From NCBI GenBank assembly GCA_031425235.1, contig JANPIZ010000006.1:30803-94802 (forward strand): a stretch of 64,000 bases of DNA, written 5' to 3'. The notes below the pieces were generated by a model that saw nothing but the letters and a program-made list of their open reading frames with translations, was not told where the DNA came from and searched no databases. The DNA comes from Candidatus Nomurabacteria bacterium. GTDB taxonomy: Bacteria; Patescibacteriota; Minisyncoccia; Phycocordibacterales; UBA9973. Numbering within the stretch: position 1 is the first letter of the stretch; the number at the start of each line of letters is the position of its first letter. Positions 19,129 through 24,146 of the stretch are shown here, one piece after another. The position numbers were made by a program, and so were the translations under genes.

Positions 19129-19971
19129 TTACCCAAAAAAATTGTCGATACTTTCATCCTGCTGTCTAGGCTGGGTACGTTTGTCCCAACGGAGCTTCTC
19201 GGCAAGTGCGGAGACATCTCCTTTCTCAATTGCCGAATCCAGGAACTCTGGGAGTTTATCCAGGCTCACCACATCAATCAGAAAGTACTCATTGACTCCA
19301 TTACGGTCTTTGTCGGTGTAAGCGTAGTTGATTTCTATTGTAAAAGGTTCAGTGATTGGTACTGATGTGCCATCGCCGTTCATTTGAGTGGCGTGGAACT
19401 TCTCGAAAGAATTGACCACAATAATTGGATACGGTACACGTTTCAATACGCGGTCTATGTACCCGTTTTTACTGGGAACGATTTTGAGATCACCGCTATT
19501 GCGATAATAAATAGCACCATTGAGCACCTGATTGATGGCTTTATTGATTACTTCGTTATCTTCGTTTTTCTTGGAGCCAGAAGCCCAGAGCTTTGCGACT
19601 GGCGTATCAGTATAGTAGTGATGTTTCGTAATCTCTGTGTTCTGACGAGGATCATCCATCCCTGTGTCTCTCATTATGCGCTTGGTCGCTCGTTCCATAT
19701 CCTTACCTTCAAACCAAAACACTACGTCTTCATTGATATATTTACACTCAACAAAAAGTCGCACATTGACCGTGCCTAGCCAGTCGTGGATAAACTCGTG
19801 TACGTCAAACTTCTTCTCGGCAATGATGTCTAGTTCACGAGGTTTATCAGTAAAATTGTCGCTGTAATGAGGGCTTACAAGTACGCTCCACTCTAATTCG
19901 CGGAGTTTATTTACTACACGTGAATGAAAGGAGTTTCCACTTTTCTCAATTATCTCTTCTATGTTTGTCAT
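19129..19971 (-). CDS. PD-(D/E)xK nuclease-family protein (Mrr-cat-like), last gene of R-M operon
   Basis: …RELDIIAEKKF…VRLFVECKY… gives D…ExK catalytic arrangement; ATG 2 nt after res stop. Confidence 0.55.
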   Translation of the reverse strand: MTNIEEIIEKSGNSFHSRVVNKLRELEWSVLVSPHYSDNFTDKPRELDIIAEKKFDVHEFIHDWLGTVNVRLFVECKYINEDVVFWFEGKDMERATKRIMRDTGMDDPRQNTEITKHHYYTDTPVAKLWASGSKKNEDNEVINKAINQVLNGAIYYRNSGDLKIVPSKNGYIDRVLKRVPYPIIVVNSFEKFHATQMNGDGTSVPITEPFTIEINYAYTDKDRNGVNEYFLIDVVSLDKLPEFLDSAIEKGDVSALAEKLRWDKRTQPRQQDESIDNFFG

Positions 19972-19973
19972 AA

Positions 19974-22251: not shown

Positions 22252-23961
22252 TTATGATCTGTTTATTTCCTTATAAACTTCAATGATTGGTTCAGGAATA
22301 TCTTCGACCCTGATATTTGCAGTGGAATATTCTCCTTTGTATTCGTTTTTGCCCCAACTGAATATATATAAAGCTGTCGGTATATTTTTCTTTTCCAACT
22401 TGGCGATCAGCTCGGCGAGTTTAGTTTTGTCTTCCTTGAAATATATAGCCATCTGTTTGCCCTTACCTTCAAATATTTGCCACCAATCGTTCTTTTCTAC
22501 TTCATTGAGTACATCCTCACGCACAGCAATCATTTCGCCTGCTTGGTAGGTGATTTTGATTTTTGCTTCATCGGAGACTTTATGAATTTGCTCGATGTCT
22601 ACGAGGTCAGTTTTGTAGTAGGAAAGGTTACTTGGTATACCTGCAACTTTTTCGTTTTTCTTGTTTTTGTATCCTTTGATAACCGCTTTTATTCTTGGAT
22701 AACAAACTGACTCCGCTATTCCACCCTTTCCATCATTGTTGTTCTCGTTATTAGTGCAGACAATAAACTTACGGTTACCGCCATCAATTTTATTCATTTC
22801 CAAAACAGCATGTCCTGTCGTTCCAGAGCCAGCGAAAAAGTCCAGAACAGTTGCGTTAGGTCTATGACCGACCACGGCAAACAAACAGTCATAAACTGTG
22901 TAGAGAGATTTCGGAAAATCAAAATCACAATTTGGCAAAATCTCTCTCAAAAGTTTTGTTCCAAAAATATTGGCATTATATTTTCCATCCGTCCAAACAG
23001 TTTTGTAGTTGAACATTGTTTTTGTCCTAACAATATCGAGAATTTTTCTGTTTCTATTTTCTACTACTGCCAGCTCATCCTTGATACTCTCCACGGTTTG
23101 GCGAGCAAAAACCCACTTTCTTTCATTGCCACTTGGGTCAATAGGGTAAATCTCTGTTACCCCGTCTTTACGTATTACATTCGCTGATTTCGGATGGAAA
23201 GAGTCAGGACTCACATCACCAAAACCAATAATCTTTCCGTCTTTTACAAAAATTGGATAGAAACAGTTTTTTGCATCTTCTCGCAAATGATTTCCCGTTG
23301 AAACATCACGCAATGGTCTAATATCTGGATTGTCTGTCCTGTCCTGTAACCCAATTAGCGTTTTATTCTTTGGCACTAAAAATATGGCGTATTCGTGCGT
23401 GGAGTGGAAGTTATTTCCTTGCGTACCTCCAGGGTTATGAATGATTGTAATTGGGTACTGGTCGTAATTAGGAAAAATCTGCTCTATCAAAACACTTAAA
23501 TGAGCTTGCTCATTATCGTCAATTGCACAAATAAGCACACCGTCATCTTTTAGTAAGTTTTTCGCCAGATTTAGGCGGTGACGCATGAAAGAAAGCCACT
23601 TGCTGTGTCGATACTCATCATCCCCATCTACATAGTCATTATTATATTTCCAGTTTCTAGCGCCAGTATTGTATGGAGGATCTATGTAGATGACATCAAT
23701 ATTCTTTTTGTGAGTGTAGTTGAGAACTGAAAGCGCAAGGTAATTATCACCCTCAATCATCAAGTTGTTTGGATATATCTCACCCAAATCAAGTTGGTTT
23801 TTTGTGACTTCTTTCAGAACTGGTACTTGAGTTTTTGATTTCTCAACAACTTCTTCCGTCTTATCCTCAAAAACAAGCCCCAGATTATTTTTTTGGAGTT
23901 TTCTGATTTGGGACTGCAAGTCCGCAATTTGTGTTTTCATTTCCTGTTCTGACATAATCAT
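22252..23961 (-). CDS. mod: Type III R-M Mod subunit (N6-adenine/N4-cytosine beta-class DNA methyltransferase)
   Basis: Motif IV DPPY (IYIDPPYNTG) preceding motif I FxGxG (DFFAGSGTTGHAV): beta-class order typical of Type III Mod. Confidence 0.8.
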   Translation of the reverse strand: MIMSEQEMKTQIADLQSQIRKLQKNNLGLVFEDKTEEVVEKSKTQVPVLKEVTKNQLDLGEIYPNNLMIEGDNYLALSVLNYTHKKNIDVIYIDPPYNTGARNWKYNNDYVDGDDEYRHSKWLSFMRHRLNLAKNLLKDDGVLICAIDDNEQAHLSVLIEQIFPNYDQYPITIIHNPGGTQGNNFHSTHEYAIFLVPKNKTLIGLQDRTDNPDIRPLRDVSTGNHLREDAKNCFYPIFVKDGKIIGFGDVSPDSFHPKSANVIRKDGVTEIYPIDPSGNERKWVFARQTVESIKDELAVVENRNRKILDIVRTKTMFNYKTVWTDGKYNANIFGTKLLREILPNCDFDFPKSLYTVYDCLFAVVGHRPNATVLDFFAGSGTTGHAVLEMNKIDGGNRKFIVCTNNENNNDGKGGIAESVCYPRIKAVIKGYKNKKNEKVAGIPSNLSYYKTDLVDIEQIHKVSDEAKIKITYQAGEMIAVREDVLNEVEKNDWWQIFEGKGKQMAIYFKEDKTKLAELIAKLEKKNIPTALYIFSWGKNEYKGEYSTANIRVEDIPEPIIEVYKEINRS

Positions 23962-24146
23962 TTTTTCTTTTGCTTTTTGATGTTAGAACGTGAATCAATA
24001 AAGCGTTGAAGATCACTCTTTTCGACTCTCCAGTATCGAATTTTTGTCGCACGAAGTTGTTTACTGTGTATATATCGATACACAGAACGTTCACCAACGC
24101 CCAACTCTTTTACCACTTCCTGTAATGTCAGAAATGTCTTCTTCAT
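23958..24146 (-). CDS. excisionase-family HTH DNA-binding protein (possible controller/Xis)
   Basis: 62 aa; LTLQEVVKELGVGERSVYRYIHSKQLRATKI matches MerR/excisionase-type HTH_17; 4-nt overlap with mod start. Confidence 0.6.
   Translation of the reverse strand: MKKTFLTLQEVVKELGVGERSVYRYIHSKQLRATKIRYWRVEKSDLQRFIDSRSNIKKQKKK

Follow-up and report, generated by a model that had tools for sequence, protein, structure and literature searches.

Type III restriction-modification (R-M) systems of the EcoP15I/EcoP1I type are, in the textbook layout, two-gene operons in which mod precedes res, and the Res protein of EcoP15I is approximately 970 aa long. We analysed a 64,000-nt stretch of a Candidatus Nomurabacteria genome (contig JANPIZ010000006.1, positions 30,803 to 94,802 of the forward strand), the whole of which is called the window here. 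It holds an operon of this kind to which two genes are added, a leader gene with a helix-turn-helix (HTH) product in front of mod and a variable fourth gene behind res. The fourth gene, an open reading frame (ORF) at 19129-19971, encodes a 280-aa protein, which was designated X280. As in the EcoP15I/EcoP1I type, mod lies before res in the window, Mod, a beta-class N6_N4 methyltransferase, matches EcoP15I Mod, and Res is a superfamily 2 (SF2) ATPase with a C-terminal PD-(D/E)xK motif. The window Res differs from EcoP15I Res in being shorter, at 757 aa, and in having no PDB relative by phmmer.

Other described systems resemble the fourth gene and its position. Like the Type IV enzymes (Mrr, MspJI) and Shedu SduA, X280 is a stand-alone protein with a putative PD-(D/E)xK core and an extra domain; it often occurs without a cognate methyltransferase, and beside R-M and other defence genes. 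It differs from all of these in having no detectable homology to any PADLOC model, and from the Type IV enzymes in that no modified-base reader domain was recognisable in it. The position of its gene is reminiscent of the defence hotspots of prophages and satellites and of integron cassettes, in which conserved flanks enclose unrelated defence genes that are swapped at a fixed junction. In contrast to those, the slot described here is part of an R-M operon carried by a small serine-recombinase island, and neither an attC-like site nor an integron integrase was found at the window island. We estimate at roughly 0.6 the probability that X280 is not a subunit of Res or Mod, but an autonomous, horizontally exchanged nuclease-type gene stacked behind an ordinary Type III operon on this island.

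Unrelated genes occupy the position behind res

The window was compared with related loci, and genes were found to be swapped exactly at the end of the mod-res operon. The island backbone and mod-res of the window align with two sister islands, L076 and L077, at 83-86% from 27601 down to 19960, except for a gap at 23007-23363. For the X280 DNA the match is to a different locus, L008, at 90%, and is confined to 19962-19064. From 19081 to 18850, in the non-coding tail, it is L076 and L077 that align once more, at 80%. In these two islands, whose Res is 90% identical to that of the window and whose backbone and tail are the same, the slot behind res is filled by a 921-aa Ppl-like gene (PADLOC Ppl, 3.4e-27). 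In a further locus with a closely related Res (L078, 84% identity), the slot is filled by a 490-aa PDC-M36A-like gene. In each of the three variants (the window, L076/L077 and L078), the fourth gene begins at one and the same junction with the res stop, TAATTATG; the start of the slot is thus the conserved TAA-TT-ATG junction after res, and its downstream edge is marked by a shared GGAAAACACCCACCA motif in the tail. Since unrelated genes fill the slot at the same junction, X280 stands in an exchangeable position and is no integral component of the R-M system. An earlier note on this DNA, made from the sequence alone, had remarked that the fourth gene falls outside the canonical Type III layout, which these comparisons support. 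It had also proposed that the gene might be a third R-M component, and here the comparison points the other way, since, among the closest Res relatives, those on long contigs have other genes there.

The tail stays in place whichever gene precedes it. The GAAAACACCCACCA sequence was found approximately 50-65 nt past the last gene in L008, L010, the window contig, L076 and L077, and the part of the tail from 19128 to 19061 is also common to L010 and L008. Because this tail is also found behind the Ppl-like gene in L076 and L077 (12116-12350 in L076), we rejected the idea that it belongs to an X280 cassette. The tail (18850-19128) may be a terminator, an attachment (att) arm or a small RNA. A hairpin was noticed near 18905-18945.

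In L076, at approximately 9276-9296, a six-codon stub (MKNIND-stop) follows the res stop; it resembles the start of X280 (MTNIEE) and overlaps the start codon of the Ppl-like gene. At the level of sequence, this stub suggests that one of the two cargo genes took the place of the other directly.

Mod and Res form a routine Type III-like pair

The ORFs for HTH, Mod, Res and X280 are all on the minus strand, and the same four genes were present in an independent public gene call of the contig, which bears out the layout, coordinates and spacings given in the earlier note. The HTH gene runs 4 nt into mod; a gap of 4 nt follows between mod and res, and one of 2 nt between res and the X280 gene. No promoter-like or terminator-like site was found at the gene junctions of the operon, and in the region they are no more numerous than in shuffled sequence. 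The mod, res and X280 genes are presumably co-transcribed.

In the translation of Mod, DPPY (motif IV) stands ahead of FAGSG (motif I), the beta-class order. Mod matched Pfam N6_N4_Mtase (1.6e-24) and PADLOC MTase_III (1.7e-69), as well as three solved Type III Mods in PDB, including Mbo45V (1.8e-42) and EcoP15I Mod (4zcf, 7e-21). The sole segment of the mod-res core that could not be aligned with the sister islands lies in Mod, at 23007-23363; it is probably the variable target-recognition part, which would have been swapped and would thus give a different methylation specificity.

The Res translation contains the Walker A motif PTGSGKT and the DExH box DEEH, followed by YPDWII…VLIVDTKAG, and the protein matched Pfam ResIII (3.9e-16) and PADLOC REase_III (2.4e-17). 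At least 5984 relatives of Res were found, and close ones are labelled 'type III restriction enzyme' by several sources. No domain model or structure matched the nuclease part. At the level of the motif, a C-terminal FYPD(W/Y/F)I…(D/E)xK is kept in six homologues of 24-90% identity. Since this motif is conserved, Res would bring its own nuclease and need none in trans, and the idea that X280 supplies a nuclease missing from Res was rejected on the same ground. The two genes are adjacent on one strand with mod first. To judge from these sequence features, Mod and Res are a conventional, self-sufficient Type III-like pair and a routine system, in which Mod would methylate its own site and Res, as an SF2 ATPase with a C-terminal PD-(D/E)xK nuclease, would cut unmodified invaders. 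The motifs that the earlier note had listed for Mod, Res and the extra ORF (in the last, RELDII…FVECKY) are all readable in the translations. Its Type III-like mod-res operon with an overlapping leader of the excisionase/HTH_17 type is likewise supported by the domain, PADLOC and PDB matches.

X280 belongs to an unnamed family with a nuclease-type active site

A word-indexed search of a set of 5.8 billion proteins returned 225 homologues of X280, none of which has a functional name or a Pfam domain; those that bear a name are all called 'hypothetical protein'. An exhaustive profile search gave 906 cluster representatives at E<=1e-3 and 244 at E<=1e-30. All of the 150 listed among the 906 representatives are stand-alone proteins, and the intact ones have approximately 250-325 aa. 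Searched as a single sequence, X280 had no match in Pfam, NCBIfam or PADLOC, and nothing significant in PDB sequences or PHROGs. The DNA copy of 90% identity differs from the window gene by 62 synonymous and 13 non-synonymous codons, and the gene is therefore under purifying selection.

Across 64 diverse representatives, residues D38, E46, D48, E75, K77 and Y216 are invariant, and G12, S33, P34, Y36, K43, R45, C76, W86, H118, K127, Q148, P182, E213 and D233 nearly so. In the AlphaFold model of X280 (pLDDT 88, pTM 0.87), the N-terminal half consists of a helix, strands and a helix; D48 opens the strand 49-58, E75 and K77 close the strand 64-77, and the flanking helices are at 13-25 and 92-103. 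Since D48, E75 and K77 are invariant and are placed on consecutive strands of the model, X280 has the arrangement expected of a PD-(D/E)xK catalytic core. The D…ExK signature read in the extra ORF by the earlier note corresponds to D48 and E75-x-K77 and is truly conserved. The note had also suggested profile searches against Mrr_cat, NucS and Res C-terminal domains, and no significant match of this kind was obtained.

What was obtained were weak matches to UPF0102 (YraN) in 14 of the 64 members and to XisH in 5 of them (best E-value 0.0017). UPF0102 and XisH both belong to the PD-(D/E)xK clan. Most of the top PDB fold matches of X280, and several of those among viral models (BFVD), are PD-(D/E)xK proteins. 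The weak PDB matches include AF1548 (1y88), which we take to be an endonuclease-like protein and which was the best, the restriction-like endonuclease domain of an R2 element, a SPARDA complex and MspJI; the weak viral ones include UL24, restriction endonucleases and DUF2726. The PD-(D/E)xK signals in sequence and in the predicted fold are thus weak but consistent.

X280 shares with YraN/UPF0102 and Hjc the pattern helix, strand, (G/R)E-x-D-hh-A, strand hhh-E-x-K, a likeness that also appears in the UPF0102 matches and in the best fold match, AF1548. It differs from them in being approximately twice as long, in a family-specific insert (SP-x-Y-x-D…KPRE), in having H and not E on the first helix, in a conserved C-terminal domain for which no fold match was found, and in a distribution that is sparse and mobile and not that of a housekeeping gene. 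The protein would comprise a YraN/Hjc-like PD-(D/E)xK core, with H16, D48, E75 and K77 plus E46 and D38, and a conserved C-terminal beta-rich domain with a long helix packed against this core.

X280 occurs patchily and without a fixed partner

A pattern scan of one genome per species (185,579 species) gave 61 confirmed X280 loci, patchily distributed over unrelated phyla, and approximately 75 loci were sampled in the survey of contexts. Most of the loci belong to Patescibacteria of the Candidate Phyla Radiation (CPR) and one to a Woesearchaeota archaeon; others are scattered over Gammaproteobacteria, Geothrix, a cyanobacterium, Planctomycetota and further groups. No match was found among PLSDB plasmids or INPHARED phages, and a single one among the 2.9 million contigs of IMG/VR, so that a phage or plasmid origin of X280 was rejected.

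The immediate neighbours of X280 are almost all mutually unrelated (approximately 55 loci), and no fixed partner was found. A DUF4145-like protein of approximately 225 aa was tried as a fixed upstream partner and rejected, as 14 upstream neighbours of 200-240 aa were unrelated to one another. In Pfam, the upstream neighbours of this size proved to be TrmD-, LexA- and IS200-like, with DUF4145 in only two of them; others, whose sequences were read by eye, are presumably HAD-, HNH- and DUF3800-like.

Of the 61 loci, only 6 have a Type III-like Res or Mod at 10 kb or less from X280, and a consistent partnership with Type III mod/res did not emerge. In L014, whose Res is 31% identical to that of the window, X280 again follows Res. 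The 95%-identical copy of X280, whose DNA identity with the window is confined to 19962-19064, follows a Type II methyltransferase and a restriction endonuclease of the EcoO109I family. Further neighbours are Ppl-like PHP-ATPases, a PD-T7-4-like zinc-finger HEPN protein (DUF4145), DUF2726, PDC-S06, Shedu SduA, a Type II endonuclease, and a Type I R-M system with a KAP NTPase. Many contexts contain no methyltransferase at all, and some copies lie among housekeeping genes. Within 3.5 kb of X280 in 26 CPR-type loci, the commonest domains were ResIII (8), Peptidase_S24/LexA (6), Eco57I (5), N6_N4_Mtase (4) and N6_Mtase (4).

Two further arrangements were seen. At 8422-13032 of L035, an X280 homologue lies between mod and res of a divergent Type III-like system (Res identity 24%). 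At 2133-4435 of L073, a gene from the 90% cluster to which the window X280 belongs has a cyclodipeptide synthase (CDPS) gene on one side and an AbiJ/Abi_C gene on the other; the gaps measure 1-4 nt, and the trio is an unusual one.

The operon is cargo of a tRNA-adjacent serine-recombinase island

The genes HTH_17, mod, res and X280 are the cargo of an integrative island adjacent to tRNA-Ser, with a recombinase at one end (Table 1). The island measures approximately 8.7 kb (about 18857-27573), and its GC content is 0.43 in the R-M half, compared with approximately 0.37 in the flanks. L010 and L076 carry all three backbone genes as well; in L077, whose contig breaks off within the recombinase module, the 64-aa and 266-aa ones are found. 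The best NCBIfam match of the recombinase was XisF. Its 3' end overlaps a tRNA gene, as it does in five other islands (L076, L009, L062, L012 and L013), and the tRNAs overlapped in the recombinase islands are Ser, Gln, Glu or Ala. Since the 3' ends of the recombinase genes overlap tRNA genes and different islands use different tRNAs, the attachment site seems to lie inside the coding end of the recombinase gene.

A search with a 10-nt seed found no long direct repeats at the island ends; the only repeat at the boundaries predicted from the sister islands is the 8-nt GGCGGAGG. For serine recombinases a very short crossover core suffices, and a repeat of this length therefore fits such an enzyme. 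The distal junction at 18849-18857 is placed tentatively by this short repeat, and the similarity to L076 ends at 18850.

Weighing the readings of X280

The preferred reading sees X280 as a metal-dependent nuclease that would act as a stand-alone second line of defence, in a Type IV-like or abortive-infection-like manner. Its C-terminal domain would supply recognition of the target or trigger, and the gene would be co-transcribed with the R-M genes simply because defence genes are stacked there. Among the roles that the earlier note had listed, the last, an independent defence or abortive-infection partner, fits the context and slot data best; the nuclease activity and the role in defence are the parts of it that we infer.

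Several observations weigh against this reading. The family profile of X280 had no match at all in PDB, and the best Foldseek E-values, 0.03 in PDB and 0.013 in BFVD, are not significant, so that the nuclease assignment is drawn from motif conservation, topology and weak matches. Residues 158-272 were well modelled alone (pLDDT 88) and had no PDB fold match (best E-value 0.34), with faint SSB/OB hints; that this C-terminal part recognises the target is a guess. The catalytic activity, the substrate and the role in defence are likewise predicted. The neighbourhood of X280 is mostly housekeeping in the 24 non-CPR loci, and its association with defence islands holds mainly in CPR and DPANN genomes. 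Finally, at least three divergent versions of Type III-like mod/res are accompanied by X280 (the window/L010 type, L014 and L035), and some looser functional affinity for helicase-type R-M systems may exist.

This last point bears on the alternative that survives best, although we regard it as improbable: X280 might be a true accessory of helicase-type R-M systems that, for example, processes or degrades DNA after cleavage by Res in small genomes that may lack a RecBCD-type exonuclease. In addition to the recurrence in L010, L014 and L035, the 2-nt gap after res, the conserved junction and the rank of ResIII as the commonest neighbour domain in CPR-type loci (8 of 121 ORFs) speak for it. However, Res has its own conserved nuclease motif, and the nearest Res copies carry other slot genes. 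The closest relatives of X280 follow a Type II methyltransferase and restriction endonuclease, CDPS/AbiJ, a Ppl-like ATPase, a PD-T7-4-like HEPN gene or no defence gene, which also tells against the accessory Type III component suggested by the earlier note. Moreover, the relatives of Res outnumber those of X280 in the same database (at least 5984 versus 225), and the non-CPR members have no R-M neighbours of note. The earlier note had held that the gene would be an unrelated neighbour if it had no PD-(D/E)xK homology or never co-occurred with res; weak homology and at least three divergent contexts with res were both found, and neither is specific.

Somewhat less probable again is that X280 serves the island, either by assisting the XisF-like recombinase, as an accessory nuclease or directionality factor similar to XisH, or by stabilising the island as an addiction toxin. 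In 11 distinct loci a large serine recombinase lies no more than 10 kb away from X280, and in 8 of these 11 the two lie at opposite ends; X280 is also the last gene before the island tail. The sister islands L076 and L077, however, have the same recombinase, backbone and tail without X280, and many family members have no recombinase nearby or lie beside tyrosine integrases. The XisH matches, which would go well with an XisF-like recombinase, are no better than those to UPF0102 and reflect the shared catalytic core; the window X280 itself has no XisH match, and no XisI-like partner was seen.

Least probable of all is a role in housekeeping or repair, for example as a structure-specific endonuclease of the YraN/Hjc-like kind, with the operon no more than a neighbour: the weak UPF0102 similarity and the largely housekeeping non-CPR neighbourhoods, including two MgsA/RarA neighbours, would fit it, but a gene with 61 patchy loci among 185,579 species, a near-identical copy in a different operon and a place inside a mobile island of atypical GC does not look like a housekeeping gene. 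Some of the context data speak against each of the accessory, island-maintenance and housekeeping readings, all of which keep a small probability.

If X280 is the autonomous defence gene of the preferred reading, a wider picture can be drawn, which we offer tentatively and consider possible, but doubtful as a whole. X280 might represent an undescribed family of single-gene anti-phage or anti-plasmid nucleases, concentrated in CPR bacteria and DPANN archaea, with a YraN-like PD-(D/E)xK core and a new sensor domain. The small serine-recombinase islands that target tRNA genes might serve as cassette carriers in which X280, Ppl-like and PDC-M36A-like genes are swapped between TAATTATG and GGAAAACACCCACCA, and leader HTH genes likewise, a modular exchange in organisms that are largely CRISPR-less. 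A family of approximately 900 representatives that is outside Pfam, NCBIfam, PADLOC and PDB and has an invariant nuclease-type active site is a cheap candidate defence gene. Furthermore, the locus illustrates the stacking and exchange of defence genes in ultra-small bacteria, with leader and trailing genes replaced at exact ORF boundaries. If X280 should prove to be modification-dependent, Type III and Type IV activities would be combined in one transcript, closing the escape of DNA-modifying phages.

The leader HTH gene

The leader HTH matched HTH_17 at 4.5e-14, and its match to the excisionase-family model TIGR01764 exceeded the cut-off of that model. Homologues of it head an R-M operon in four further islands, overlapping mod by 4-11 nt in L010, L013 and L014 and preceding a ResIII-N6_Mtase pair in L001. 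In L078, the leader position is taken by an XRE-type HTH (5098-5304) and not by HTH_17, and the similarity between L078 and the window starts approximately 50 nt inside mod; on these grounds the leader gene is also a swapped module. No recombinase was present within the 7 kb upstream that were fetched for L078.

The leader most likely controls transcription of the operon. Because its homologues head R-M operons and an XRE-type HTH takes the leader place in L078, where the 7 kb upstream showed no recombinase, a role as operon controller is favoured over that of an excisionase. No operator was identified for the HTH, the sole promoter-like site being a generic match. In being a small HTH gene that heads and overlaps an R-M operon, a position in which it recurs in four islands, the leader resembles C proteins and MAD1 of MADS; the related operon L078, with an XRE-type HTH in the same place, adds to the likeness to C proteins, and the weak similarity of the window HTH to MAD1 to that with MADS. 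The window HTH differs from C proteins in its family, which is HTH_17/excisionase (MerR-like) and not XRE. Classical C proteins typically precede the endonuclease gene, whereas the window HTH precedes mod.

Other features of the island

The features of the island are listed in Table 1.

Table 1. Positions of the operon, island genes and non-coding elements in the window
Feature	Position	Strand	Remarks
Putative distal island junction	18849-18857	.	GGCGGAGGG; first 8 nt GGCGGAGG repeat tRNA-Ser 3' end at 27574-27581
Conserved non-coding island tail, ~270 nt	18858-19128	-	Contains GGAAAACACCCACCA at 19064-19078; ~80% identical to L076/L077
X280, 280-aa ORF	19129-19971	-	Unnamed family; putative YraN/Hjc-like PD-(D/E)xK N-terminal part and unmatched C-terminal domain; swappable cargo gene
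Type III-like Res, 757 aa	19974-22247	-	SF2 helicase with C-terminal FYPD…DxK nuclease motif
Type III-like Mod, 569 aa	22252-23961	-	Beta-class N6/N4 methyltransferase
HTH_17/excisionase-family leader gene, 62 aa	23958-24146	-	Overlaps mod start by 4 nt
Divergent intergenic segment, conserved and strongly structured	24360-24580	.	Candidate regulatory RNA, origin or operator region
Backbone genes	24569-25936	+	64 aa (24569-24763); 266 aa (24732-25532, weak HTH_36); 135 aa (25529-25936)
Large serine recombinase, 567 aa	25938-27641	+	ORF end overlaps tRNA gene
tRNA-Ser(GGA)	27573-27661	-	Integration target, proximal island junction

Between the window and L010, the segment at 24360-24580 is approximately 95% identical, although the genes on either side of it reach only approximately 77%. 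Strong folding was found for both strands (z -5.2 and -5.6), and the fold includes two long hairpins. A search of the island with Rfam found only the tRNA and gave no match for this segment. It may act as a regulatory region of the island, as an origin of replication or as a non-coding RNA.

An exact look-up of the neighbouring SET protein, as a way to an empty integration site, returned only the same contig. The small SET-domain gene in question (18281-18754) lies just outside the window island, and another was noticed in L003 (14407-14838), a few kb from the X280 island there; the synteny is probably coincidental, in related genomes.

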